Positions 45,219-62,500 are shown, numbered from the stretch's first letter. The stretch is 64,000 bases of DNA from Bacteroidota bacterium (GCA_947478465.1 CANJWH010000010.1:991-64990), one strand, 5' to 3'. Notes: generated by a model not told the origin, from the letters alone. Numbers and translations are program-made.

Positions 45219-48200
45219 ATGGACTTAGAGGCTGTAAAGAATAGATTTTCGCAACACCCGCGCATCGCTGAATTGGTTAACTCGCTTTCGGCAGGTAATT
45301 CTACGCGCATTCACATCAAAAATCTTGCTGGCTCGTCTTCAGCTTTTGCTGCGGCAACTGTTGTTTCCAAAATTCCGAAAACGCATGTTTTTATCTTGCC
45401 GGGCAAGGAAGAAGCTGCTTATTTTCTGAATGATATTGAAGTGATGCTGGGCAAAGAACAAGTTTTGTTTTTCCCGATGTCGTATCGCAGGCCTTATAGT
45501 GAAGAGGAGAAGACAGACAACAGCAATGTGGTTGAGCGGGCGGAAACGCTTAACAAACTCAATCAGAATTTTGCGCGAGCAGTTGTTACCTATCCTGAAG
45601 CTCTTTCTGAAAAAGTTATCACGAGAAAAGTTTTAGAAAAGAATACGCTGTTGTTGAAAACAGGCGACACTCACGGAATTGATTTTATCACTGATGTGTT
45701 GTATGAATATCATTTTGAGCAGGTGGATTATGTTTTCCTGCCGGGGCAGTTTGCAGTGCGTGGTGGCATTGTAGATATGTTTTCGTTTTCAGGAGAATAT
45801 CCTTTGCGTGTTGAGTTTTTCGGAAACACGATTGAGAGCATCCGCAGCTTTGATCCTTCAACACAATTGTCGGTTGCCAATCTTGTGCGGGCTACTATTC
45901 TTCCTAATGTACAACAAAGCCTGTTGCACGAAAGCCGTGTTTCCTTTTTAGAATTTATTCCTGCTGAAAGTCTGGTGTGGATCACAGATGTAAGAAGTGC
46001 GGTTGCAGTTTTAAATTCAGAACTGGAGGTGGCAAAAGCAGCTTTTGAGAATCTGAAAACTGAAATGAATTATTTACCGCCTGAGGAAAAATACATCAGC
46101 GGAAATTATTTTATAGACAAGTTTAAACAACACAGTATTGTAGAATTAGGACAGGCAGAATATTTTGATGATGTACAAACGATTGAGTTTAATACTTCGC
46201 CACAACCCGCATTCAATAAGAATTTTGAAATGCTGGGCGATCATCTTCGCAAAAATTCTTCGGCCGGTTATCAAAATCTTTTAGCTGCAGAAAATCCCAA
46301 ACAGGCTGAACGCTTGTATTCTATTTTTGAAGACATGCCTGTTAAAGCAGGAGAAAAGAAACCGGTGTTTACACCTTTAGTAGTTTCGATTTCTGAAGGA
46401 TTTACCGACCATGATTTAAAAATATCTTTCTACACCGACCACCAGATTTTTGAGCGTTACCACCGTTTCAAACTGCGTAACGGTTTTGTAAAATCACGTG
46501 AAGCGATTACGCTGAAAGAATTGCATGGATTAAATCCGGGCGACTTTGTTACCCATATAGATCATGGTATCGGGAGATTTGCAGGTCTGGAAAAAATTGA
46601 TGTGAATGGAAAGATGCAGGAGGCTGTGCGACTGGTTTATCGTGACAATGATATATTGTATGTCAGCATTCATTCGCTGCACCGCATTGCAAAATATTCG
46701 GGGAAAGATGGAAATGAGCCAAAGATAAATAAGTTGGGTTCTGGCGCATGGCAAGCGATGAAGTTGAAAACCAAATCAAAGGTTAAAGACATTGCTAAAG
46801 ATTTAATAAAACTGTATGCACAGCGCAGAGCGAAAAAAGGTTTTGAGTTTTCGCAGGATAATTATTTGCAAACTGAACTTGAAGCAAGTTTTATTTATGA
46901 AGATACGCCTGATCAGGTGAAATCAACTGCGGATGTGAAGAAGGACATGGAGCAAAATTTTCCGATGGATAGATTGATATGCGGTGATGTTGGTTTCGGG
47001 AAAACAGAGATTGCAATACGTGCTGCTTTCAAAGCGGTATGCGACAGCAAGCAGGTGGCAGTCCTGGTTCCTACTACAATTCTTGCATTGCAGCATTACA
47101 AAACTTTTAGTGAGCGATTGAAGAATTTTCCGTGTCGTGTTGATTACATCAATCGTTTTAAAACTGCGGGACAACAAAAAGAAACACTTAAAAAATTAGC
47201 TAATGGAGAGATTGATATCATTATTGGCACTCATCGGATTGTAAGTAAAGATGTAAAGTTTAAAGACCTTGGTTTGCTGATTGTAGATGAAGAACAAAAG
47301 TTTGGCGTAGGTGTGAAAGAGAAACTGAAAGCTTTTCGAGTGAATGTAGATACGCTAACGTTAACAGCAACACCAATCCCACGTACGCTGCAGTTTTCGC
47401 TTATGGGAGCGCGGGATTTATCTATAATTAATACAGCACCTCCAAATCGTTTTCCTGTAATTACCGAAGTGCATACGTTTAATGAAGAAGCTATCCGTGA
47501 TGCTATACGCTATGAAATTGACAGGGGTGGGCAAGTGTTTTTTGTAAATAACAGAATTGAAAATATTCGTGAGGTTGCAGGAATGATTTCACGACTTTGT
47601 CCGGATGTGCGGGTTGGTATAGGGCATGGACAATTAGAAGGACATCAACTCGAAGAAGTGATGATGAATTTTATTGAAGGCGCAACAGATGTGCTGGTTG
47701 CCACATCCATCATTGAATCCGGATTAGATATTTCTAATGCTAACACTATCATCATTAATAATGCGCAAAATTTCGGATTAAGTGATTTGCACCAGATGCG
47801 CGGCAGGGTGGGGCGTTCGAACAAAAAAGCATTTTGTTATTTATTGGCTCCGCCAAGCGAAATGCTGAGCACCGAAGCTAAAAAACGTTTACGGGCAATT
47901 GAAGAATTTTCAGAGCTCGGTAGCGGTTTCAATATTGCCATGCGCGATCTGGATATTCGCGGAGCAGGAAATTTATTGGGTGCTGAACAAAGCGGATTTA
48001 TTTCTGACATTGGGTTTGAGATGTATCACAAAATTCTGGACGAGGCGATACAGGAATTGAAATTGGAGTTGGATCAGGAAACTGACATTCAGCAGAAAGA
48101 AAGAAAACCTAATGCAGCAGCACATATTCAGCAACTTTCTTATGTCAGAGATTGTGTGATTGATACCGACTTGGAAATTCTTTTGCCGGATAATTATGTG

Positions 48201-48596
48201 AATAATATCACAGAGCGTCTAGGGCTTTACCGTGAGCTGGATGATATTGAAAACGAAACAAGCTTACAGCTATTCGAAAAAAATATGATTGACCGTTTTG
48301 GTCCGTTTCCAAAGCAGGCAGAAGAATTACTTAACACTATTCGCTTGCGTTGGATTGCGAAAGAAATTGGTTTTGAACGATTGATTTTAAAGAATAAAAA
48401 ACTTACGGGTTATTTTATTTCTTCACCTAACTCAGCGTATTTTCAAAGTGATATTTTTGGTAAGGTGTTGCAGTATGTCCAAACGCACGGCAAGGATTGC
48501 CGCATGACACAAAAAGGGGAGAAGCTGATGTTGAGTTTTGAAAATGTCAACCGAGTAGACGAAGCAATTCGTTGGTTGAAACAGATTCTTGCTTAA
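45219..48596 (+). CDS. mfd: transcription-repair coupling factor
   Basis: 1125 aa. UvrB-homology N-terminus, RecG-like SF2 helicase core (GDVGFGKTE Walker A, DEEQ) and TRCF C-terminal domain. Confidence 0.95.
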   Translation: MDLEAVKNRFSQHPRIAELVNSLSAGNSTRIHIKNLAGSSSAFAAATVVSKIPKTHVFILPGKEEAAYFLNDIEVMLGKEQVLFFPMSYRRPYSEEEKTDNSNVVERAETLNKLNQNFARAVVTYPEALSEKVITRKVLEKNTLLLKTGDTHGIDFITDVLYEYHFEQVDYVFLPGQFAVRGGIVDMFSFSGEYPLRVEFFGNTIESIRSFDPSTQLSVANLVRATILPNVQQSLLHESRVSFLEFIPAESLVWITDVRSAVAVLNSELEVAKAAFENLKTEMNYLPPEEKYISGNYFIDKFKQHSIVELGQAEYFDDVQTIEFNTSPQPAFNKNFEMLGDHLRKNSSAGYQNLLAAENPKQAERLYSIFEDMPVKAGEKKPVFTPLVVSISEGFTDHDLKISFYTDHQIFERYHRFKLRNGFVKSREAITLKELHGLNPGDFVTHIDHGIGRFAGLEKIDVNGKMQEAVRLVYRDNDILYVSIHSLHRIAKYSGKDGNEPKINKLGSGAWQAMKLKTKSKVKDIAKDLIKLYAQRRAKKGFEFSQDNYLQTELEASFIYEDTPDQVKSTADVKKDMEQNFPMDRLICGDVGFGKTEIAIRAAFKAVCDSKQVAVLVPTTILALQHYKTFSERLKNFPCRVDYINRFKTAGQQKETLKKLANGEIDIIIGTHRIVSKDVKFKDLGLLIVDEEQKFGVGVKEKLKAFRVNVDTLTLTATPIPRTLQFSLMGARDLSIINTAPPNRFPVITEVHTFNEEAIRDAIRYEIDRGGQVFFVNNRIENIREVAGMISRLCPDVRVGIGHGQLEGHQLEEVMMNFIEGATDVLVATSIIESGLDISNANTIIINNAQNFGLSDLHQMRGRVGRSNKKAFCYLLAPPSEMLSTEAKKRLRAIEEFSELGSGFNIAMRDLDIRGAGNLLGAEQSGFISDIGFEMYHKILDEAIQELKLELDQETDIQQKERKPNAAAHIQQLSYVRDCVIDTDLEILLPDNYVNNITERLGLYRELDDIENETSLQLFEKNMIDRFGPFPKQAEELLNTIRLRWIAKEIGFERLILKNKKLTGYFISSPNSAYFQSDIFGKVLQYVQTHGKDCRMTQKGEKLMLSFENVNRVDEAIRWLKQILA

Positions 48597-49756
48597 TCTT
48601 TTTTCGAATCAATTATCACAACTGCATCCGCAATCACCTTTGCCATTTTACTCATTGTATCATTGCTGAGGCATTCAATAGTATCTCGTCTGGTGTGGTA
48701 AGTTGGATGAAGCTTGTGCATTGGCAAACCTACTACTGAAACAGCGGGAATTCCATTTCGGGTGAAACTGGATGCATCAGTAGCGCCTATAGGAATCATT
48801 CCTGATTTTTTCTCCAACCCATTTGATTTAAAAGCTTTACCGAGGGTTTCAATCAGGTATTTATCGTGACGGGCAAAAAGGGATAATTCAAAATCAATAA
48901 TATGCATTTCATTTATGTCGAGCATTCCGTCAAGGTTAATAATATGTGTTGCCTTTATTAGTTCATCACGATGCTTTTGCTCATAGGCTTTTGAACCTTT
49001 GAGACCGGTTTCTTCCGAACCGAAAGAAATGATTTTTAAACGTGTATTTTTCAGAACTGATTTTCCATCTTTCAAAAGATTTTGTGCAGCAAAGAAGGCA
49101 ACAGCAACCCCGGAAAGGTTATCCTGTGCGCCATCTACAACTCGTTTTCCGTGAATAAAAAAGAAGCTTAATGAGAAAATGCTGCAAAATGCAAAGCAAT
49201 ACCAACCATAGCTGAGGAAAGGACTAAACCCAAAAACTAGAGATGATAAATAGAAAACAGGAAGTGTTACAAATGCAACTCCGCTAACCAGCATCATACG
49301 GATACCCCAATCGCGAAAATAATACCACCAGATAAATTCGGGAGTACTATCCATGTGTCCTGAAATAATTACGGTTTGTTTCACTTCGCCAACAGGTTCT
49401 ATTGTGCCGATAACATTACGCGAAGTAAGTTTTGGATAAAAAATATCAAGCCAATCTTTATACATCAGAAAATGAAAAAAGAAAACCACAGAATTTACTG
49501 CACTTACTGCAATGGCAAAGTTTACAGACCAAAGCGGTAAGACCAATGAAATATAAAACAGAATGCAGAAAATTTTAAGAGAAGAAAACTTTGCAGTAAG
49601 AGCATCGGTAAATTCTTCGGTTTCTACGGTGTTGCAAATCGGTTTGAGTTGCTCTGAAAAATACTCTTGTGCATTTTTTTCAGCAATACTTCCAGCCCTT
49701 CGCGGACCAAATTTTTGGATAATAGTGGATACTAAATCTAGAGGAGTTTGCAGCAT
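48593..49756 (-). CDS. membrane-anchored M28-family Zn-peptidase
   Basis: Several TM helices plus an M28 catalytic pattern (HMDS, DNLSGVA, GSEETGLKGS). Convergent with mfd and overlaps its stop by 4 nt. Confidence 0.68.
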   Translation of the reverse strand: MLQTPLDLVSTIIQKFGPRRAGSIAEKNAQEYFSEQLKPICNTVETEEFTDALTAKFSSLKIFCILFYISLVLPLWSVNFAIAVSAVNSVVFFFHFLMYKDWLDIFYPKLTSRNVIGTIEPVGEVKQTVIISGHMDSTPEFIWWYYFRDWGIRMMLVSGVAFVTLPVFYLSSLVFGFSPFLSYGWYCFAFCSIFSLSFFFIHGKRVVDGAQDNLSGVAVAFFAAQNLLKDGKSVLKNTRLKIISFGSEETGLKGSKAYEQKHRDELIKATHIINLDGMLDINEMHIIDFELSLFARHDKYLIETLGKAFKSNGLEKKSGMIPIGATDASSFTRNGIPAVSVVGLPMHKLHPTYHTRRDTIECLSNDTMSKMAKVIADAVVIIDSKKD

Positions 49757-49911
49757 GAAATAATTTTATGATCGGTTTTGTTTCAAAAGTAAAATAAAAA
49801 AGACTCCGCACGCTTTGCGCTTTCACCTGAGATCTCAAAACTTTACGTCCCTTTGCGCAATCCCGCTCTTAACATTGGTTAATTTGCAATCAACCTTTCT
49901 GTCCCTATAAT

Positions 49912-50040
49912 TACCCTAACTCACCGTATTTTCAAAGTGATGCTTTTGGGAAGGTACTTAATTATGTGCAAACACACGGTAAAGATTGCCGCATGACCCA
50001 GAAAGGGGATAAGCTGATGCTGAGTTTTGAGAATGTGGTT
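49912..50040 (+). pseudogene. orphan, divergent duplicate of the mfd 3' end (gene fragment)
   Basis: About 85% nucleotide identity to 48432-48557. Keeps the reading frame (PNSPYFQSDAFGKVLNYVQTHGKDCRMTQKGDKLMLSFENV) but has no upstream gene body and a different tail. Confidence 0.75.
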
Positions 50041-50134
50041 ACGGTCGGGGGTGGGATTAAGTGGTTGGGTGGGATTTTGTCACCCTGAGCATAGTCGAAG
50101 GGCTTTATTATAAGCAAAGCCAACATCCCAACCT

Positions 50135-51817
50135 TCATTGCCTTGCAGTTTTAATACGAAAACAAGTCAAACACCAAGTATTACCATGCTTTATTGAAAC
50201 AGGTGTTGCCCACCATTGATGACCCTCTTTGCATTGCCATAAAAGTTTTGTACTGCTATTTTTATATTCTTTTGATAAGCATAGTCCTTGATTTCTTATG
50301 GCAAGGTGCTGCATTTCCTCTATCGTAAGTTTTTTCAATTTTGAACATTCAGGACACCAACATTTAGCATGAATAATTGATACTGGTGGTGATTGAAATT
50401 GATGGCCCTCTTTACATTCCCAAATAAGTTTAGTGCTAAGGTTTATATACTTTTCTGATAAACATTTCCCACCTCTCAATTTTGCAAGCTCCTGCATTTG
50501 CTCAATTGTCTTCTTTTCAGAACCACTACACTTTAAACACCAACTCTCATTATTTTTTACATTATTAGGAGATGCAAACCATCTGTGTCCTTTTTTGCAT
50601 TCCCATTCTAAATTTCCCTCACTCCCCTTATATTCATTTGAAATAAGCTTTCCTCCTCTTTGTTGAGCAATTCCATTTAACATTGTAATTGCTGAAAAAC
50701 TCTTCTTAAATTCATCAAACGAAATCTCTTCCGGCTTTCTTATAATTTGAACTTCTACTCTCTCCAGCTCTTTTACTATCCACCCGACTAAACCGTCTTT
50801 AATTTTATTAGCAAAGTCTGGAATAAGTATGATTTTAATTCCTTTCTCCCTGCATAATTTTTCTTTTAGACTATCGCGTTTTTGCGCTTCTGATAACGTA
50901 TATTTTTCCGAGTGAAAAAATTTTATCTCTTCAAAGTGCTGAGCACCATTGTACTCAAATGCTAAATTATATTCCTTTGAGTAACCATCTAATTCTAATC
51001 TATTTCCAAGAACTTGTCTTGTTTTTTTGAATTCTGTTTGTAACAAATATTCTAAAATGAATCTGCATTTTTCTTCTGTATAATACCATCTACATTGCGG
51101 ACACCATTGTCCACTGTTCATTATACTTGCTGAAATCATTTCAAATGTATGTCCGTCTGCACATTTCCATTCTAGTTTTGTTCGGCTGTTTACATACGCT
51201 GTTGATAGTAATTCCCCACCTCTCGATTTAGCAATCTCTTGTAACTCTTTAATTGTTGGCTTTGCCTTTCCAGAACATTTTGGACACCATACATTATTGC
51301 CTTTAATATCATGTGCAGTTGCTAAAAAATTATGCCCTTTTTCACATAGCCAAGATAGTTTTTCTTTATTGTGATTATATCTTTCAGATAAACATTGACC
51401 TCCTTTTGTCTTAGCATATTCTTTCATTTCCTCTATGGTCAGTTTTTTTGTTCCACCACATTCGTGACACCAATGTTTAGCATTAATTATTGAACTAGGT
51501 GTTGCAAACCATTCATGCCCTTTATCGCATTGCCAATGAAGAGTTGAATTAATATTCTTATAAGATATTGATAGACATTTCCCCCCTCTTGATTTTGCAA
51601 TTTCTTGCATTTTTTCAAGAGTATATTTTCTTTTTCCTGAGCAATCAGGACACCAATGCCCATATTTTATTGAGTGGTATAAAGCAGTCCATTTGTGCCC
51701 TTTTGCACATTGCCATTCAAGTTTATTATTGCTGTTTTTGAATTCTAATGACAAGCATTTTCCCTCTCGCAGCTTTGCAAGTTCTTGTGCCTTATTAATC
51801 GATAATTCAGATCGCAT
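50135..51817 (-). CDS. multi-zinc-ribbon repeat protein with central DUF559/Vsr-like (PD-(D/E)xK-type) nuclease-like domain
   Basis: Seven tandem roughly 50-aa modules, consensus T[IL]EEMQE[IL]AKxRGGKCLSxxYKNxxxKLxWxCxKGHxWxAxPxSIxxxxxWCPxCSG, four N-terminal and three C-terminal. They flank a core with ELDGYS...LAFEYNGAQH...KRD..L...GIKIILIP resembling DUF559 endonuclease-like domains. Confidence 0.6.
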   Translation of the reverse strand: MRSELSINKAQELAKLREGKCLSLEFKNSNNKLEWQCAKGHKWTALYHSIKYGHWCPDCSGKRKYTLEKMQEIAKSRGGKCLSISYKNINSTLHWQCDKGHEWFATPSSIINAKHWCHECGGTKKLTIEEMKEYAKTKGGQCLSERYNHNKEKLSWLCEKGHNFLATAHDIKGNNVWCPKCSGKAKPTIKELQEIAKSRGGELLSTAYVNSRTKLEWKCADGHTFEMISASIMNSGQWCPQCRWYYTEEKCRFILEYLLQTEFKKTRQVLGNRLELDGYSKEYNLAFEYNGAQHFEEIKFFHSEKYTLSEAQKRDSLKEKLCREKGIKIILIPDFANKIKDGLVGWIVKELERVEVQIIRKPEEISFDEFKKSFSAITMLNGIAQQRGGKLISNEYKGSEGNLEWECKKGHRWFASPNNVKNNESWCLKCSGSEKKTIEQMQELAKLRGGKCLSEKYINLSTKLIWECKEGHQFQSPPVSIIHAKCWCPECSKLKKLTIEEMQHLAIRNQGLCLSKEYKNSSTKLLWQCKEGHQWWATPVSIKHGNTWCLTCFRIKTARQ

Positions 51818-51949
51818 TTTTTTGTTTGATAAAACAAACCTAAAAACTTTCCCGCATCTTCACTAAACGCAATTTCCAATTGCGCTTAGAACACAAGATA
51901 ATTTGCAACTAAGCGAAGCGATCTCACCGAAGGTAATTATCTTTTCAAC

Positions 51950-52400
51950 GTATGTCCATTCCATTTCCAAAACTCCTGCCTTCCTCTGTGCCTCCTCATT
52001 CTAACTCTGTGTAACTTCTCCTCTCCGGTTAAAAAATCCATTTCACATCCCCATTTTCCCTGTCATCCGTGTCCCATTTCCCTTCCCCACACATAAAACA
52101 CCCCATTTCACGCAAAGAAACTGCCATTTAATGCTAAACAATTAACATTTTATGTGTATCAATTAACAGTAACTTCTAATCAATTAACGCTTAATTCGTA
52201 AAAATTAATAGTAAATGTGTATCAATTAATAGTAACTTCTAATTTAATAATACTAAATTCTAATCAATTACCACTTCATTCTAATATATTAACAATAAAT
52301 GTGAACAAATTACCACTAACTTCTAATCAATTACCAATTAATGTGTATTAATTAACTATAATTGCTCCTCAATTAACACTTCAAGCTCCGAAATTGAGAG
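51950..52400. repeat. iteron-like direct-repeat arrays in a divergent intergenic region
   Basis: Five CCATTTC(A/C)C repeats at 51955-52110. A further 8-10 AATCAATTA(A/C)C / AACTTCTAAT repeats, including three roughly 40-bp copies of aatgtgtatcaattaacagtaacttctaatcaattaac, lie at 52130-52380. Confidence 0.7.
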
Positions 52401-52478
52401 CGCAGGTAAAATAAATCCCAGCGCAAGTCAAAAAATCCAGCCTCTAACCTCCAACTTCTAACCTCTAACTTCCAAAAA

Positions 52479-52850
52479 ATGGCAAACCGCTCCTACACAT
52501 CCAACCTCTTCTTAAACATAGAACATGTCTGCGCAGTAAGAAACATTGACCGGCCTTTCACCTTCCTGCGCAAGCACGGTTTTACCCACAACACCGCCTC
52601 ACAGCTTGTCAACAATGAAGTAAAAGAAATCAACCTCGCCTACATCGAGAAGCTCTGCCTCATTTTCAATTGCACCCCCAACGATTTATTTGATTACTCC
52701 CCTTCTAAAGACGCTGCACAAACAAACAACAACCCGCTCATTGCAATTATAAAAACCCGGAAGCCCGTAAACTTCAACGAGCTTCTCCGCGACATGCCCC
52801 TCGATCAGCTCAAAGAAATAGAAGAAGAAATTCGTAAGCGGAAAGCCTGA
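52479..52850 (+). CDS. XRE-family helix-turn-helix transcriptional regulator
   Basis: HTH_XRE-like segment FLRKHGFTHNTASQLVNNEVKEINLAYIEKLCLIFNCTPNDLFDY. Confidence 0.62.
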   Translation: MANRSYTSNLFLNIEHVCAVRNIDRPFTFLRKHGFTHNTASQLVNNEVKEINLAYIEKLCLIFNCTPNDLFDYSPSKDAAQTNNNPLIAIIKTRKPVNFNELLRDMPLDQLKEIEEEIRKRKA

Positions 52851-52890
52851 AAATATAATTTGTAAATTTGCTTCACTAAAACACAAATGC

Positions 52891-53133
52891 ATGAATATTC
52901 AGGTAAGAAAATTAAACTTTATTGAGGAGCTTTTAAGAGTAAGTGATGAGAAAATAATTTCAAAATTAGAAGCGTATCTTAAAGAGGAAAAAAAGAAAAG
53001 TTATGAGAAGGAATTAAAGCCAATGGCTCATAAAGATTTTTATGCAATGATTGACCAGTCGTTAAAAGACAGTAAAGAAGGAAGAGTAACTTCCAATACT
53101 GATTTGAAGAAGAAAATAAAAACGTGGAAATAA
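52891..53133 (+). CDS. putative antitoxin of a type II toxin-antitoxin pair
   Basis: 80-aa charged protein overlapping the downstream toxin gene by 10 nt. Assigned from position and size only. Confidence 0.45.
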   Translation: MNIQVRKLNFIEELLRVSDEKIISKLEAYLKEEKKKSYEKELKPMAHKDFYAMIDQSLKDSKEGRVTSNTDLKKKIKTWK

Positions 53134-53438
53134 AAATATTCTGGTCTGCACTTGCAGAGGATCAATTAAAAAACATTTTTGATTATTATAAAGAAGTTGC
53201 AGGAGAACGAATAGCTAAACGGATAATAAATCAAATTGCGGAACGGGTTACTATCCTTGAAAAAAATCCCAGAGCTGGGCAAAAAGAAGAATTACTGAAA
53301 GAATACTCGGAAGAATTTCGCTACCTCGTAGAATCAAATTACAAAATCATTTACTGGATCAACAGCAATATCATTACTATTTCATCTGTATTTGATTGCC
53401 AGCAAAATCCGGAAAAAATGAAGGAGTTGAAAAAATAG
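53124..53438 (+). CDS. RelE/ParE-family type II toxin
   Basis: 104 aa with an IFWSALAEDQL...YYKE N-terminus and a FRYLVESNYKIIYWINSNIITISSVFDCQQNP C-terminal pattern typical of ParE/RelE toxins. Confidence 0.68.
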   Translation: MEIKIFWSALAEDQLKNIFDYYKEVAGERIAKRIINQIAERVTILEKNPRAGQKEELLKEYSEEFRYLVESNYKIIYWINSNIITISSVFDCQQNPEKMKELKK

Positions 53439-53474
53439 AGCAGGAAGGAATGCTGCTTATCATGAATTAACAAA

Positions 53475-53508
53475 CAAAAAAGTCCCGCATTGCTACAGGA
53501 CTTTTTTT
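53475..53508. terminator. weak bidirectional terminator-like hairpin
   Basis: aaaaaagtcccgcattgctacaggacttttttt sits between convergent genes. Confidence 0.45.
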
Positions 53509-53550
53509 GTGTCTGCCTTCTCGCAAAAAACAGACGCGGGATTGAAAATC

Positions 53551-56500
53551 TTATTGCAGAACCGTTACATTTCCTGTATTGCTAAATCTTCCGTCTTCGT
53601 GTTCCATGCCTTCCCATTGTGTTCCATCCATAAAGGTTGCATCTGCTTTCCAGATATAAGCACCCTGTGGAACAACCACACCATTGTATCTTCCATCCCA
53701 GCTTTCAACAGGTTTGCCATCAATTAACTTACTCGATTCCCAGAGCAGGTTACCCCATTTATCAAATATCATACAGTGGTAAGTTGCTACACCAATACCT
53801 TTTGGCAGGAAGTATCCGAAGTCGCCATCACCACCAACAATCAATGCATTAGGCATAAACAATCCTTTGAAAAGTTCCACTTCAACAGTTTGAGTAATGG
53901 TATCTGAACATCCTGCACCGCTGTAAGCAATCAGTGTTACATCAAACTCACCGTTGTCTGAATAATTGTTTATCGGATCTGTAAGTGTTGATGTTTGTCC
54001 GTCACCAAAATCCCAATCGTACGTTGTTGCACCTGTTGAAAGGTTGGTGAACTGAATTTGTCCGTCAGGGTCAACTACATTGAAATAATCGGAAGTGAAA
54101 TCTGCTACCGGGGTTTGCAACACTGTTACAGCAGAAGTGAGTTCGAGTGTATCGTTACAGATGCCGCCTCCACTTACTACCAATGTTACATCGTATGTTC
54201 CGGGAATTTCATAAGTGTGTGAAGGGTTGCTGAGCATTGAAGTATCACCATCACCAAAGCTCCAGTAGTAGGTAACACCGTCAACTGAATTGTTTGTGAA
54301 GGTCACCGTGTAAGGAGCACAACCTGAGTTTCCGCTCAACGCGAACGATGCAGTAGGTGCAGGATAAACATTGTAAACGTAATCCGAAGTATCTATGCAA
54401 CCACTTGCAGAAGTTGCAGTCAACACAACTGTATAAGTTCCGGTAGTATCAAAACTTGCTTGTCCGTTAGTAGTTGTTGCATTAGTTCCGTTTCCGAAGT
54501 TCCATGAATATGAAACAGCATTTGTTGAAGTATTAGTAAAATCAACTGTTACCGGATAAGTGCAGGAGTAAGTATTTGTAGAAGGCACTGTGAATGCAGC
54601 TACCGGAGGTGCGCTGATTGTTACGGTTACACTGTCCTGAGTTCCTACACAACCAAGTCCATCAGTTACAGTTACTACATACGTTGTAGGTACCGAAGGC
54701 AATACGATGTGCGAAGCTCCGTTTCCAAGACCATTGTTCCAGCTGTAAGTGTACACACCATTACCGCCTGTTGCGGTTGCAGAAATAGTAATACTGTCCC
54801 CTGCACAAACTACGTTTCCGATGCTGTTTATGTCAGCAACCAATTGTGCCGGCTGACCTATTGTAATTGTTTGCGAAGCAGCGCATCCATTTGCATCTGT
54901 AGCTATCACTATGTAAATTCCTGCAGAAAGACCTGTTGCTGTTGAAGTTGTATTATTACTTGGTGTCCAGTCGTAAGAGTAAGGAGTTGTTCCGCCAGTT
55001 ACAAGAACAGTTGCTGTTCCGTTTACTCCACCAAAGCAGGTAGGTTGTGAACTTCCTATTAAAGAAATTGCCATGTTACCCGGAGCAGAGATGGTAACGG
55101 TTGTGCTGTCTGAACATCCTGCGGCATCAGTTACAATAACTGTATGGCTTCCTGAAGTAAGGTTGGTAGCAGTAGCAGTTGTTTGTCCGTTATCCCAAGC
55201 GTAGTGGTAAGTTGGTGTTCCACCCACAACAGCAACAGTTGCAATACCAGTTGCAGAACCACCGCATGCAGGCTGTACAATGTTTGAAATAGTTAAATCA
55301 AGTGCAGCAGGTTCGCTCACAGTAAATGAAAGTTGAAGTGCGCAACCAGTAGAGTCGGTAATATTTACTGAATAGTCACCTGCCAGAAGATTTGTTGCTG
55401 GAACTGTAGTTTGTCCGTTACTCCAAGCATAAGTATATGGAGTATTTCCACCGGCAATGTTAAAGCTGATGCTTCCATTGTTTTCACCATTGCAGGTTAC
55501 ATTGTTTACATCCACATCTCCGGCTGAAAGAACTGCATTTTCGGTAATTACAAAGTTTACAATGGTGATACATTGATTGGCATCACGGATAGTGACAGAG
55601 TGCAATCCGGCCGGCAAATCTGAAACAGTTTGAGTTGTTTGACCATTATCCCAAACGTAGGTATAGCCCGGAATACCACCTGAAACGTTTATAGAAGCCG
55701 ATCCTGTAGCGCCACCTGCACAACCAACATTTACCTGGTTTTCAATAAACGCAGACATTGGTGAAGGCTGTGTGATGACTAAACTTAAAGAAGTATCGCA
55801 ACCACTTGCATCAGTAATCTGAACAGAGTATTCACCTGCGCCAACACCATTCAAATCATGAGTGGTTGCACCGTTAGACCATAAGAAAGTATATGGAGCA
55901 GTTCCGCCAATTACATTAATGAAGCCAGCGCCATTGCTTCCTCCGTTGCAAGTTACATTTAGTATATCAAGAATTGTTGCAGTTAAACTTGGTGGCTCTG
56001 TAATGTCAGCAAAAACAGTTTGTGAGCAACCATTTGCATCAACAACTGTTACCTGATGAATTCCAAATGCAAGACCTGTTGCAGTTTGTGTTGTTTGCCC
56101 GTTGGCCCATGAATAAGTGTAAGGAGCTACTCCACCGGTTACGTTTACTGTTGCAGATCCGTTGGCAACTCCTGCGCAGCTTACAGAAGAAGTATTCTCG
56201 ATAACTGCAGTTAATTGCGTAGGATTAACAACCTGAATAGTGTCAGTTGAAGAACAGCCATTAGCATCTGCTGCAGTTACAATATAAGTTCCTGCGAAAA
56301 GATTAGAAGCAACCGAGCCGGTTTGTCCGTTGCTCCAAAGGTAAGTGTAAGGAGCTGTTCCTCCTGAAGGAGTTGCTGTAGCAACACCGTTTCCGGCACC
56401 AAAGCAACTAACATCTTCACTATTGAAATCAGAAGTTACATCAGCACTTACTGTGAGAGTAATAGGGTTAACAATTCCAGCTTGAGTAGTTGTTGTGCAG

Positions 56501-59500
56501 TTGTTAGCATCTGTAACTGTTACATCATAAATACCCTCGGCAAGATTAGTTGCAGTTGCATTTGTTTGTCCGTTCACCCACAAATAAGTGTAAGGAGCAG
56601 TTCCGCCAGTAACAGAAACTGTAGCACTTCCATTGTTATTTCCATTGCATGAAGGCTGAGTAGTTGATGAAATTGTAGCAACCAGTTGCTCTGGCTCATT
56701 CACCACAATGTTTATAGTAGTATCACAACCCAGAGAATCAGCTAATGTGATTGAATATGTTCCTGCAATTAATCCGGAAATATCTTCTGTTGTAGAACCG
56801 TTACTCCAGGAGTATGAGTAAGGAGCAGTTCCACCGGAAGGTGTGATGTCAATAGCTCCGTCATTTCCTCCATTGCAACTTACATCGCTTACAGCAATAT
56901 TATTAGAAGGAATTGCAAGAGGTTGAGGTTCGCCAACTATAACAGTTAAGATTACATTGCATCCGTTGGTATCTGAAACTGTAACGGTATAAGTTCCGGC
57001 AGCAAGACCTGTTGCTGTAGAACCTGTTTGTGTATTTGACCAAAAGTAGAAATATCCCGGAGTTCCACCAGCGGCCTGAACTGTTGCGCTTCCGTTTGCA
57101 ACACCGTTGCATGAAGGTGTAACAATTGAAACAACATCTGCAGTTAAAACCATAGGATCAACTAGTGTTACAGAAACGGTGGTGTCGCAACCGTTAGCAT
57201 CTGTAGAAGTTACAAAGTATGTTCCGGCAGCTAAGTCGGTTGCAAAATAATCTGTTGAACCGTTAGACCATTGGTAAGTGTATCCGGGGGTTCCGCCATT
57301 TACTAAAACTTCTGCCATACCATCAGCATCGCCTGCGCATGATATGTCCGTTCCGTTATAGTCTGAAGTAACTGTAGCGTATGCAATAAGTGGATTAGGT
57401 TCACCAATAAGTACGTTTGTTGATGCAATGCATCCGTTGTTATCGGTTACACTTACAAAGTAAACACCTGCACTTAGGTTTGTAGCAGTAGATGAAGTTT
57501 GTCCATCACTCCACAAATATTGGTATCCGCTTGCACCTCCGGTAGCGTCAACTGTTGCATAACCATCTGCTAAACCACTGCAGCTTACATTATGTTGGTC
57601 TATTAGATTTACTTCCAACAATTCAGGTTCTGTTAAAGTAATGCTGTCATTAATTGAGCATCCGTTTATATCAGTAATGGTTACATAATATGTTCCTGCA
57701 AAAACAAATACCAGATTTTCGTCAGTTGAAGTAAAACCGTTTGGTCCTGTCCATGCATAATTGTAATCAGCACAATCTGCACCACCACTTAAAGCAAGAT
57801 TGATGCTGCCATTATTAGTATTTGCGCAGTTTATGTTCCAGCCTCCTGCATTTACTGGGCTTGTCAGACTATCAACTGTAAGCGGTGTTGGTTCTGTTAA
57901 TGTAATTGAAGTTGTTGCAGTATTTCCAAGCCCATCTGTAACGGTTACGGAATATGTAGTTGCAGAAAGACCGGTAGCAACTTGTGAAGTTTGTCCGTTG
58001 CTCCATAAGTAAGAATAAGGCATGCATCCACCGGCAGGCAATGCGGTTGCAGTTCCATTATTTCCTCCCGGACAAGTAATATTAAATCCACAGCTAAATG
58101 TATCAGCAACTGCAGAAACTAACAAAGGATTTGCAAGAACAGTTATGTCAAATGAACAGGTTGTTGTATTTCCTGAAGCATCAATTGCTGTGTATGTTAC
58201 AGTTGTTGTTCCAACAGGGAAGCTGTTTCCTGACTGGAAGTTACTGGTCAATGAGGTAACCGCACAGTTGTCAGTAGCAATTGGCGTATTCCATGTAGCA
58301 TAAGGATTGCAATTTGAACTGTCAGGTTGAATTACAATATCAGCAGGACACAAGGTAAATTCAGGTGCAATGTTATCCACTACCGTTATAGTTGAGAAAC
58401 AATTGTCTGAATTTCCATTCACATCCGTAACAGTAAGTGTTACCAGATTTTCGCCAACATTTCCGCAGTTGAAAGATGAAACAGAAATTATCATTGTATC
58501 AATTCCGCATGCATCAGTTGAGCCGTTATCAATTTGTGCAGCGGTGATTGAAATTACTCCATTAGAGTCAAGAGCAACAGTAATATTTTGACAAATTGCA
58601 TTAGGATTGGTTGCATCGACAACTGTAACAGTTGAAGAGCAGGTAGCAACATTTCCGTTGAGGTCAGTAACAGTTAAAGTAACAGTATTAGAGCCAACAT
58701 TTGAGCAGTCAAATGTATTTGGAGAAACTGTCATTGAAGCAATTCCGCATGCGTCTGAAGAACCGTTATCAACCTGTGAAGAAACGATTGAAATATTTCC
58801 TGTTCCGTCTAAATCAATTGTAATATCGCGGCAGATTGCAATTGGATCAACATTATCCTGCACTGTTACAGTTGATATACAGGTTGAAACATTTCCATTA
58901 ACATCAGTCACAGTTAATGTTACAGAATTAGTTCCTATACCAGCGCAAGTAAAGGTGTTAGGGTTCACAGTCATTGTTGCAATTCCGCAGTTGTCAGATG
59001 AACCATTATTTACCTGTGAAGAATCGATTGTTACCTGTCCGTTTGCATCCAACTGAACCGTGATGTCTTGACAAATTGCAATCGGATCTATCTCGTCATT
59101 AATAGTAACTGTTGCTGTGCAAGAAGAAGAGTTTCCGAAAGCGTCTGTAACAGTTAAAGTCACAGTATTTGCACCAACGTTTGAGCAATCAAAATTGGTT
59201 TCACTTACGCTGTATGTTAAGCCATTGTTAGGAGTTGAGCAGTTGTCGAACGAACCATTGTCAACCTCAACAGCAGTAATAACAGCGTTTCCGTTTGCAT
59301 CTAACTGTACTGTTATGTTTTGACAAATAACAGTTGGTGAAACAGTATCGGTAATTGTAACAACAGCATCGCATGAAGAAGAATTTCCGTTAGCATCAGT
59401 TACGGTTAATGTTACTGTGTTGGCTCCGATGTTTGAGCAATCAAAATTAGTTTGACTTGCAGTGTAAATTAAGCCTGAACCTGAATTAGAGCAGTTGTCA

Positions 59501-62500
59501 GTAGTTCCGTTATCTAAGTCAATACCAGTTATAACAACGTTTCCGTTTGCATCCAAAGCAACCGTAATATTCTGACAAACGATAGTTGGATTAATGGTAT
59601 CCTGAACAGTTACAACAGCTGTGCAGGTTGAAATATTTCCGGAGTTATCGGTAGCAGTTAATGTTACAGTATTAGTTCCAACATTTGAACAATCAAATGC
59701 AGAAGGCGAAACAGTAAGTGAAGCAATTCCGCAGGCAGCGTTTGTTCCGCCATCAACTTGTGCAGCTGTAATAATTACGTTTCCGGTTGCATCTAATTGA
59801 ACCGTGATGTCCTGGCAAACTGCAGCAGGCGCAACATTATTCTCAACTGTAACAATGGCTGTGCAGGTTGAAGAATTTCCGTATGCATCTGTAACAGTTA
59901 AGATAACTGTATTAATACCTTCATCTGTGCAATCAAATGTTGTTTGACTTGCTGTGAATGTTAATCCTGAATTGATGTCCGAACAATTATCTGTTGAACC
60001 ACCATCAATATCAATTGCACTGATTGTAACGTTTCCATTTGCATCTAACTGAACGGTAATATTCTGACAGATTGCAACAGGAGAAACAGTATCAGAAACC
60101 GTAACTATTGCATCGCATGAAGATGAATTTCCATAAGCATCAGTTACTGTTAAAGTAATTGTATTTGCACCGATGTTTGAACAATCAAATGAAGTTTGAC
60201 TTGCGCTGAATGTTAATCCTGAGCCCGAAGTTGAGCAGTTATCACTTGAACCGTTGTCAATGTCAGTAGCAACAGTTACTACATTTCCGTTTGCATCTAA
60301 CTGAACTATGATGTTCTGACAGATTACTGTTGGGTTTGTGTCATCCTGAATTGTTACTGTTGCACTGCACGTAGAAGAATTTCCATTGTTATCAGTTACA
60401 GTTAATGTTACCGTGTTTGCACCAATATTTGAGCAATCAAATGCTGAAGGAGAAACTGTCATTGAAGCAATTCCGCATGCATCAGAAGAATTGTTGTTTA
60501 CCTGAGCAGCAGTGATAACAGCATTTCCATTTGCATCTAAGTTTACAGTTATGTTCTGACAAATTGCAATTGGAGCCGTGTTATCCTGAACAGTAACGAT
60601 TGCTGTGCAGGTAGAAATATTTCCATGATTATCGGTTACAGTTAAAGTAACAGTGTTAGTTCCAACATTTGAACACGTGAATGATGAAGGAGAAACTGAA
60701 AGCGAAGCAATTCCGCATGCATCTGAAGAACCATTGTCAATTTGTGCTGCTGTGATAGAAGCAATACCCGCAGCGTTCAGTTGAACAGTGATATTCTGAC
60801 ATTGAGCAATCGGAGCAACATGATCCTGAATAGTAACAATAGCTGAGCAGGTTGCTGTGTTTCCGCTTTGGTCAGTAACAGTTAAGGTTACAGTATTTGC
60901 TCCTATGTTAGAGCAATTAAATGAAGAAGGATTAACACTTAATGTAACTGGTCCGCACTGGTCGCCTGAACCGTTATCAACCTGTGCCGCAGTAATGGTT
61001 GCATTCCCGTTTGCATCCAGTTGAACAGTAATGTTACGACAAAGTGCAATAGGAGGGTTGTTGTCTAAAACAGTAACAGTTGCTGTGCATGTGCTTTGAT
61101 TTCCGTTGTTATCAATTACTGTTAATGTTACTGTATTTGCACCAACATTCGCACAAGTAAATGTTGAAGGCGAAACACTCATTGCAGCAATCCCACAGTT
61201 GTCAAAAGAACCTCCATCCACATCAACAGGAAGAATGGAAATATTTCCGGTTGCATCTAACTGAACAGTTATGTTCTGACAGATTGCAGTTGGAGGTGTG
61301 CTTGCATTATCCTGTACTGTTATTGTTGCTGTGCAGGTAGAAACATTTCCGTTTACATCAGTAACAGTAAGTGTTACTGTATTTGCGCCAACATTTAAAC
61401 AGTTGAAAGTAATTTGCGGCTGTCCGTTAATAGCGATGGAAGCAATTCCGCAATTATCATTTGAACCATTATTGATTTGCGCAGCTGTTACAATTACAGA
61501 ACCTGTTTGGTCTAACTGAACAGTTATGTTCTGACAGATTGCAATAGGATCTACATTATCCTCAACCGTAACCGTAGCAGTGCATGAAGAAACATTTCCG
61601 TTTACATCTGTAACTGTTAATGTAACTGTATTTACTCCAACGTTTGCACAGCTGAAAGCAACCTGTTTTTGACCATTAATGGTTGATGAACCAATTCCGC
61701 ATGCATCGCTGGAAGCACCGGTAACCTGCGAATCTGTAACAATAACAATTCCATTTGAATCAAGTTCAACAATTATATTCTGACAAATGACTACAGGTGC
61801 AATTGTATCTTCAACAGTAACATTTGCAAGGCATGTAGAACTGTTTCCGCTAAGGTCGGTAACAGTTAAAGTAACCGTGTTAAGTCCAACATTTGAACAA
61901 TTAAATGTATTAGGAGAAACCGAAAGAGATGCAATTCCGCAATTATCAAAAGAACCGCCATCAACATCTGCAGCAACAATAGAAGCATTTCCTGTAGCAT
62001 CAAGCTGCACAGTTATATTCTGACAGATAGCTGTAGGTGGTGTGCTTGTATTATCAACAACTGTAATAGTTGCATTGCAGGTAGAAGTATTTCCATTCAC
62101 ATCAGTAACAGTAAGTGTTACTGTATTTGCACCAACATTTAAACAGTTGAAAGTAATTTGCGGTTGTCCGTTAATAGCGATGGAAGCAATTCCGCAATTA
62201 TCATTTGAACCATTATTGATTTGCGCAGCTGTTACAATTACAGAACCTGTTTGGTCTAACTGAACAGTTATGTTCTGACATATTGCATTCGGGTTAATAT
62301 TGTCTTGAACAGTTACAGTAGCATTACAAGTAGAAACATTTCCGTTTATATCTGTTACAGTAAGTGTTACCGTATTAGCTCCAACATTTGCACAGGTAAA
62401 CGTGTTTGGCGAAACGGATATGGATGCAATACCGCACGCATCTGAGCTTCCGTTGTTAACCTGTGCTGCTGCTACTGAAGCATTACCACCTGCGTTTAAC

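Follow-up and report, generated by a model that had tools for sequence, protein, structure and literature searches.

An accessory islet between mfd and a giant adhesin gene in a Bacteroidota chromosome, with an HTH_26 gene behind a 21-bp phased repeat array

A 64,000-nucleotide stretch of DNA from a Bacteroidota bacterium (GCA_947478465.1 CANJWH010000010.1:991-64990; the whole stretch is called the window below) contains, between mfd and a giant adhesin gene of the type IX secretion system (T9SS), a short segment in which direct repeats, a helix-turn-helix (HTH) regulator gene and a toxin-antitoxin (TA) pair lie next to a nuclease gene and a second mfd 3′ end. Such a combination raises the question of whether a plasmid or an integrative and conjugative element (ICE) has left its maintenance region in the chromosome, as a sequence-only reading of the window had proposed. 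Comparison with related loci points elsewhere. The segment is a real accessory islet of ordinary flexible-genome content, but it is a mosaic patchwork, and a plasmid or ICE leftover is not supported. With some confidence, we explain it as a flexible islet of the chromosome that occupies a variable slot and combines three independent units: the HTH gene with its repeat array, an endonuclease gene accompanied by a scar of foreign mfd, and a ParE cassette. On the left, mfd would limit this slot, together with an M28 peptidase gene in the window's clade; the limit on the right would be the giant T9SS adhesin gene's bidirectional terminator.

A scan of species-representative genomes with the Mfd protein identified six close relatives. 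Three of them (L006, L007 and L008; Mfd 93–95% identical in amino acids) share DNA synteny with the window up to position 49802 and again from 53472. They lack the islet, and in them the M28 gene is followed by about 118 bp and then by the adhesin gene. In L011 (Mfd 87%), mfd is followed by open reading frames (ORFs) of 266 and 187 aa, by the repeats with the HTH gene, and by the adhesin gene. The L011 slot has no M28 gene, no 560-aa endonuclease gene and no TA pair, and its two cargo ORFs gave sub-threshold Pfam matches only, one of them to T5orf172. In L010 (Mfd 91%), an inverted and truncated copy of the array that includes the first 29 nt of the HTH gene follows mfd, and a T9SS beta-propeller gene precedes the adhesin gene. 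Since the content differs among L006/L007/L008, L010 and L011, everything between the stop codon of mfd and the terminator of the adhesin gene makes up, as far as sequence comparison can tell, a variable slot in the genus. The M28 gene is itself variable; it lies after mfd in the window and in L006, L007 and L008, and is absent from this position in L010 and L011.

The synteny break in blastn (49802/53472) and the alignment of the junctions place the 3,680-bp islet at 49803–53482, or equivalently at 49792–53471, and the limits proposed earlier, 49757–53510, have to be moved accordingly. The islet had also been placed between mfd and the adhesin gene. It does adjoin the adhesin side, but after the resident mfd gene (45219–48596, plus strand) the M28 gene intervenes (48593–49756, minus strand; Pfam Peptidase_M28), overlapping the mfd stop codon by 4 nt. 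Composition also differs. The GC content is 0.356 over 49803–53471 and 0.398 in the whole window, and the islet genes depart from the background (mean ± SD, 0.403 ± 0.024 for GC and 0.358 ± 0.056 for GC at third codon positions, GC3) by 2–5 SD in both measures. The direction is heterogeneous between genes: the endonuclease gene (GC 0.340, GC3 0.242), the antitoxin gene (GC 0.284) and the ParE gene (GC 0.330) have low values, and the HTH gene has high ones (GC 0.460, GC3 0.589). The GC3 of the HTH gene is about 4 SD over the window genes. The gene order is not conserved and the composition is unlike that of the flanks; therefore the claim of an accessory islet, absent from L006, L007 and L008 and replaced by other cargo in L010 and L011, stands.

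The two borders share only an 11-nt imperfect A-rich repeat, AAA(T/C)AAAAAAG, and long repeats, direct or inverted, are absent from the flanks of the islet. The left copy, AAATAAAAAAG, occupies 49792–49802, where synteny with L006, L007 and L008 stops at 49802. The right copy, AAACAAAAAAG, lies at 53472–53482 within a feature that extends to 53508, where it merges into a terminator hairpin (GTCC..GGAC plus T7) and supplies the A-tract of this terminator, which is bidirectional and stands at the 3′ end of the adhesin gene. The same hairpin is present in L006, L007, L008 and L011, and a single copy of the 11-nt repeat is kept at the empty sites of L006, L007 and L008. Judged from the junctions, either a deletion or an insertion by microhomology would agree with such a repeat. 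Conserved flanks with lineage-specific cargo, the 11-nt border microhomology and a displaced flanking-gene fragment from another allele are all features of flexible genomic islets or hot spots shaped by homology-facilitated illegitimate recombination, with the mechanism here read from scars only.

If the islet were a remnant of a plasmid or ICE maintenance region, its repeats would serve as iterons to which a protein for replication or regulation binds, and an addiction module left over after integration would account for the TA pair. About 14 tandem direct repeats of 21 bp were found, which is an iteron-like size and spacing (~17–22 bp); a ParE TA pair is present and the composition is atypical. 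However, no Rep initiator lies beside the array. The islet ORFs are the endonuclease, the HTH_26 protein, the antitoxin and ParE only, and searches with Pfam and NCBIfam revealed no Rep, Par ATPase (ParA or ParM), integrase, relaxase, or transfer or conjugation gene among them. No partition NTPase (ParA, ParM or TubZ) was found in the window or in 42 homologous HTH loci. For an ICE, the islet has no recombinase ORF, and it has no att repeats beyond the 11-nt border repeat. In PLSDB, searched by blastn for plasmids with a homologous segment, just three weak matches turned up (66–72% identity over 4–9% of the query), each of them to a zinc-ribbon gene on a Bacillus or Priestia plasmid. A phage DNA collection searched with the islet gave no match, and scans of viral contigs with the HTH protein and with the endonuclease were both empty. 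Furthermore, the HTH gene with its array occurs on chromosomal contigs of 0.6–1.1 Mb in dozens of different contexts, and the TA pair is a separate indel. A plasmid or ICE origin is thus largely refuted, and we give it very little credence. Iteron-like repeats that occur together with an addiction module and an HTH gene need not signal a plasmid remnant, and for this islet the negative is clean.

The part of the islet deserving follow-up is the HTH gene with the repeats in front of it. The gene (52479–52850, plus strand) encodes a 123-aa protein with a Cro/C1-type HTH_26 domain (Pfam, 1.1e-11), and the intergenic gap before it (51818–52478) measures 661 bp and holds the two repeat families that the sequence-only reading had noticed. 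The first is a phased array of about 14 units of 21 bp with the core CAATTAAC (52098–52418, plus strand). Ten copies of a 111-nt reference align within it at successive shifts of 21 nt, and Tandem Repeats Finder (TRF) reports periods of 21, 42 and 63. The unit motif matches four times in the window, versus 0.28 expected, and none of 100 shuffles reaches four. The second family, CCATT[TC], has 7 copies in a C-rich, G-poor block (51956–52135, plus strand); this is 7 in 186 nt versus 0.14 expected (Poisson 1.7e-10). The C-rich block is 88–92% identical in L011 and in two loci with paralogous HTH genes (L090 and L101), which exceeds the conservation of the HTH coding DNA. On its left, the module has an arm (51863–51908) that consists of a palindrome (51863–51889, inverted repeat I3) and a 32-nt element (51877–51908). 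On its right, a heptamer leader, CCTCTAA or CTTCTAA (52441–52472, plus strand; TRF periods 7 and 14), lies just before the HTH start codon and is kept in paralogues. The minus strand of 52040–52100 in the C-rich block carries five runs of three or four G (GGGG..GGG..GGG..GGG..GGGG); by sequence these runs at the head of the array are a possible G-quadruplex or i-motif element.

In L011 the repeats and the HTH gene are 87% identical to those of the window in nucleotides, and the HTH protein is 97.6% identical, where Mfd reaches just 87%. The similarity may reflect either unusually strong conservation or recent exchange. More distant copies sit at non-orthologous loci. The homology to these paralogous loci covers window positions ~52029–52844 and a 40-nt element at 51871–51910, the latter matching L090, L092 and L093, and the HTH paralogues are 70–76% identical. 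For instance, the paralogue of L086/L087 has an adhesin gene on either side and sits at the far end of the one that abuts the M28 gene in the L006 genome. That of L090/L091 lies beside a DDE transposase gene, that of L095 neighbors a T9SS protein and has a ParE pair 3 kb off on the other strand, and that of L101 is convergent with a CHU_C gene fragment. Upstream of each paralogue, between about −350 and −60 counted from the start codon, lie 12–14 units that keep strictly to a 21-nt phase. The sense strand of the array is strongly G-poor (4–7% G). The core motif differs between paralogues, while within one array a core of 8–9 nt is kept and 12–13 nt vary. On its array side the HTH module borders variable or selfish cargo in L011 (13502–14890, two ORFs), in L095 (2121–2695, the ParE/antitoxin pair) and in L090 (5841–7424, the DDE_3 transposase gene).

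The 21-nt period extends far beyond these copies. A metagenome scan with the HTH alignment gave 417 loci confirmed by tblastn, and the best 80 of the 417 (L104–L183) were fetched. The period was measured at 66 loci with enough upstream sequence and in 390 control windows from the same loci. Twenty-one nucleotides is the strongest period upstream of 89% of the HTH genes and in 8.7% of the controls, and the period-21 match score is at least 0.5 in 76% and 0.3%, respectively (Mann-Whitney p = 3e-33). The period of 21 (or 42) nt holds upstream of HTH proteins of 28–88% identity and on contigs of up to 1.1 Mb. No conserved partner gene accompanies the module across the 42 HTH loci, where the neighbors vary. 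By sequence comparison, then, the repeats and the HTH gene form one self-contained module that is widespread in environmental DNA, and a literature search found no published description of it.

How would such an array work? Sites spaced at two helical turns fall on the same face of the DNA, and the array would be a cooperative operator for the HTH protein. Binding would autoregulate the HTH gene and could silence a divergent neighbor. We lean slightly towards this arrangement of cooperative binding with autoregulation and, possibly, silencing of the divergent gene. Alternatively, the array may not be an operator for the HTH protein at all, and may serve as a transcribed repetitive 5′ leader, as reiterated weak promoters or as intrinsically curved DNA. 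The strongly G-poor sense strand, the extension of the array to the start codon in many loci and the loss of the unit sequence in distant homologues that retain the 21-nt period would all agree with such a role. However, a kept core of 8–9 nt with 12–13 variable nucleotides is the usual pattern of protein-binding sites, and the invariable partner of the array is a DNA-binding protein. An Rfam search of the array found no match and RNA folding showed no excess structure (z = −0.66); therefore the idea of a structured RNA was dropped. We regard the non-operator alternative as unlikely. The array was also considered as a coding sequence for a heptad peptide, and this was rejected, as the open frame and the strand are inconsistent between loci.

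Repeat arrays upstream of a small DNA-binding-protein gene are familiar from plasmid iterons, from parC/ParR of R1 and pSK41 and from the omega heptads of pSM19035. The likeness lies in about 10–14 helix-phased direct repeats immediately upstream of the gene. Unlike those systems, the present module is chromosomal, stands alone with varying neighbors and has neither Rep nor a partition NTPase. Its protein belongs to HTH_26 instead of being a ribbon-helix-helix or Rep protein, and its unit sequence diverges while the 21-bp period is kept. A wider proposal can be made, tentatively and with more doubt than belief: the HTH_26 gene with its 21-bp-phased array would be an undescribed, self-contained chromosomal element, probably Bacteroidota-wide (the taxonomy of most loci is unconfirmed), in which the HTH protein would polymerize along the array as a nucleoprotein filament and so silence or insulate neighboring giant T9SS adhesin genes and further variable cargo, and the modules would mark recombination hot spots for selfish genes such as homing endonucleases, TA pairs and transposases. 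If the arrays are cooperative operators or boundary elements, they would be a regulatory device that is new and can easily be tested, and that may take part in controlling giant adhesin genes. The window's species is also represented by three independent metagenome contigs (L002, L003 and L005) that all end inside the HTH gene, at residues 66–83, which suggests either strain polymorphism downstream (with or without the TA pair) or collapse onto paralogous HTH copies.

Downstream of the HTH gene lie a putative antitoxin ORF (52891–53133, plus strand, 80 aa) and an ORF for a 104-aa ParE/RelE-family toxin (53124–53438, plus strand; PF05016 ParE_toxin, 1.4e-11, a score past the family's cut-off). 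The two overlap by 10 nt, so that the overlapping pair noted from the sequence alone is indeed there. The toxin family is common, with 121 homologues at E ≤ 1e-8, of which only a few have a source name, and these come from Bacteroidota; the antitoxin ORF matches no Pfam or NCBIfam family. In L011 a terminator occurs within 20 nt of the HTH stop codon, and the window instead has a cassette of ~615 bp at about 52851–53465. As deduced from this alignment, the TA pair was inserted separately, after the stop codon of the HTH gene and ahead of the terminator. The cassette probably has its own promoter. The sequence TAnnTTTG, which we take to be the Bacteroidota −7 consensus, is found as TAAATTTG at 52863–52870 on the plus strand, 21–28 nt before the antitoxin start codon, and this is the only plus-strand TAnnTTTG between 51818 and 52900. 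On the same presumption, TAGGTTTG (51835–51842, minus strand) is a candidate −7 box 18–25 nt upstream of the endonuclease ATG; both promoter-box calls are our inference.

The position of the HTH gene immediately before the TA pair allows a different view, in which the two form a three-component ParE system of the PaaR2-PaaA2-ParE2 type, with the HTH protein as a dedicated TA regulator and the array as its operator. Systems of this type, with the order regulator, antitoxin and ParE, are documented (PMC8630535). The order and orientation are the same here, and the 40-nt gap between the HTH and antitoxin genes contains no terminator. As in the ParDE/RelE type II modules, the PaaR2-PaaA2-ParE2 type among them, a small ORF precedes and overlaps the gene of a ParE-fold toxin, and farther upstream an HTH gene has the same orientation. 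In contrast to them, the antitoxin belongs to no curated family and the HTH gene is unlinked to TA genes in relatives. L011 has the HTH gene and the array without any TA pair, most other HTH loci likewise lack the pair, the gene downstream of HTH varies across the 42 loci, the ParE pair of L095 is 3 kb away on the opposite strand, and the candidate −7 box falls inside the 40-nt gap. A dedicated three-component system is accordingly improbable, and we retain the view of the cassette as a unit of its own.

The left part of the islet contains a different kind of scar. A duplicate of the mfd 3′ end had been noted after mfd, and it is confirmed: 49915–50036 matches the resident gene at 48426–48547 (plus strand, outside the islet) with 85% identity over 122 nt. 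Translated homology extends this fragment, termed mfd′, to ~49911–50088 on the plus strand. It is a pseudogene remnant with 56 codons plus the stop codon of a foreign mfd allele, and 46 nt separate it from the endonuclease stop codon. Its identity is 94–95% to the mfd 3′ ends of L006, L007 and L008, 92.5% to that of L010 and 85% to the resident mfd, and over its last 16 codons it follows the L009/L010 type. Being closer to sister species than to the resident gene, mfd′ marks, by sequence, an import by recombination and not a copy of the resident gene. The duplicated end was thus correctly taken as a sign of a recombination junction; the displaced mfd end is the scar of an allele import, not of an integrase. 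Mutagenesis of mfd′ in the manner of a diversity-generating retroelement was considered and rejected, as its G-rich end matches the normal L009/L010 mfd ends, positions other than A differ too, and no reverse transcriptase is present.

Module sequence also occurs to the left of mfd′. A displaced copy of the left arm of the HTH module occupies 49858–49909 and consists of a 32-nt element (49858–49889) and the 18-mer AACCTTTCTGTCCCTATA (49892–49909). The former is 72% identical to 51877–51908 (direct repeat D4). The latter matches the left edge of the L011 module at 17 of 18 positions, where it sits ~13 nt left of the start of homology with the window module (window 51956 onward), and the uninterrupted left arm of L011 contains AACCTTTCTGTCCTTATAGTCCC. 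Pieces of the left arm are thus found on both sides of the mfd′–endonuclease segment. The segment with the mfd 3′ end and the endonuclease gene would have been imported from a genome with the endonuclease directly after mfd and joined into the left arm of the module. The endonuclease gene came with a 180-bp foreign mfd 3′ fragment, which argues that it was copied from a genome where it lies directly downstream of mfd. A likely route would be homology-anchored recombination on the right and an illegitimate join on the left, the route being deduced from these remains.

The gene next to mfd′ (50135–51817, minus strand) encodes a 560-aa protein, and its earlier description as a zinc-ribbon/nuclease gene holds, with Pfam matches to DUF4379 in five stretches (5.5e-27) and to CapR (1e-11). 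The protein has four CapR/DUF4379 treble-clef repeats of ~60 aa, a central nuclease (about residues 245–345) and three more repeats, seven repeats in the model. Strong matches to PHROG families that carry an endonuclease or homing-endonuclease annotation include phrog_559 (9e-75), phrog_9084 'homing endonuclease' (1e-9, at residues 238–341) and phrog_7140 'intron encoded nuclease'. An AlphaFold 2 (AF2) model built on an alignment of 60 homologues had a mean confidence (pLDDT) of 90.4, whereas the single-sequence model was useless (pLDDT 37.8). A sequence search of the nuclease domain against the PDB gave noise only. By structure, the only high-probability Foldseek matches in the PDB were E. 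coli Vsr (1vsr, probability 0.99; 1cw0_A, 0.98) and the catalytic domain of I-Bth0305I (3r3p_B, 0.95), the last with a target-normalized TM-score of 0.65. The Foldseek E-values are weak (0.03–0.28) because the query has several domains. Residues E275, D277, H294 and D315, as well as E248, E288 and K318, are at least 90% conserved in the 60 homologues. The first four are probably equivalent to residues of Vsr and agree with the EDxHD motif that I-Bth0305I has been described to carry (PMC3239194). A 2025 paper reported that several CapR/DUF4379/DUF723-like domains combined with an EDxHD/Vsr-like nuclease characterize a large, previously unrecognized outgroup of homing endonucleases (PMC12350094).

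The predicted structure shows that the 560-aa protein has a Vsr/EDxHD fold in a CapR-repeat homing-endonuclease architecture, and by analogy it would cleave DNA and home. It resembles I-Bth0305I and the CapR-like outgroup (PMC12350094) in its Vsr-type fold, its conserved E/D/H/D residues, its modular CapR/DUF4379 repeats, its free-standing gene and its presence/absence polymorphism. It differs in that the nuclease is central, with four repeats before and three after it, where those have it at the C-terminus, and in that the host is a Bacteroidota chromosome instead of a phage intron. With this gene, the group, whose description dates only from 2025, gains a chromosomal Bacteroidota member in which the nuclease domain is central. 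The family is huge, with 1,419 matches at E ≤ 1e-10, and the nearest non-self relative is 64% identical. Its patchy distribution among the sequences compared is as expected of a selfish gene; together with the foreign mfd fragment attached to the gene, it is indirect evidence for homing.

Could the zinc-ribbon nuclease and the TA pair instead be anti-phage defense genes in a hot spot, the nuclease not being a selfish homing enzyme? TA systems are often linked to defense. The slot holds alternative cargo in each relative, and one nuclease homologue adjoins a type I restriction HsdR gene. However, the islet proteins have no significant PADLOC match, the sole match being that of the antitoxin to PDC-S59 (E = 0.002), and the other cargo includes the secreted beta-propeller protein of L010, which is not a defense gene. 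The nuclease architecture also fits the homing-endonuclease group of PMC12350094. A defense islet has a small chance of being correct, and we prefer the patchwork of three independent units.

Several points weigh against the picture of a patchwork with a selfish endonuclease and an operator array. All relatives compared are metagenome-assembled genomes or metagenome contigs. No direct sign of homing was found in the scattered, unrelated chromosomal contexts of the endonuclease homologues, and so large a family could have a non-selfish role. The arrays of distant HTH homologues share no universal core motif, and their unit consensus differs widely; therefore a conserved protein-DNA code is not demonstrated, and the period could serve another purpose. 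The only apparent transfer between species, contig L004, may be an assembly chimera. Up to 47.62 kb this contig matches L006 at 100%, and from 47.68 kb onward it matches the window at 100%, across the M28 gene and mfd′ and into the endonuclease gene. The switch (window 47622–47680) falls within an identical run of 59 nt that the two species have in common, and the resulting hybrid Mfd is found on one contig only. As a proof of transfer between species L004 was downgraded on account of the shared run and the singleton hybrid protein.

Some minor observations remain. Four substitutions in L004 are clustered in the mfd′ remnant, at window positions 50001, 50004, 50031 and 50064. The adhesin gene (53551–63861, minus strand) runs past the window end. 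Its ORF, listed as 3,436 aa, stays in frame and stop-free to the window edge, and the L006 orthologue has 6,217 aa. The C-terminal 499 aa of the adhesin are 89–92% identical to those of L010 and L011 and 76% to those of L006, L007 and L008, a ranking opposite to that of Mfd; therefore the two flanks of the islet have a mosaic ancestry.

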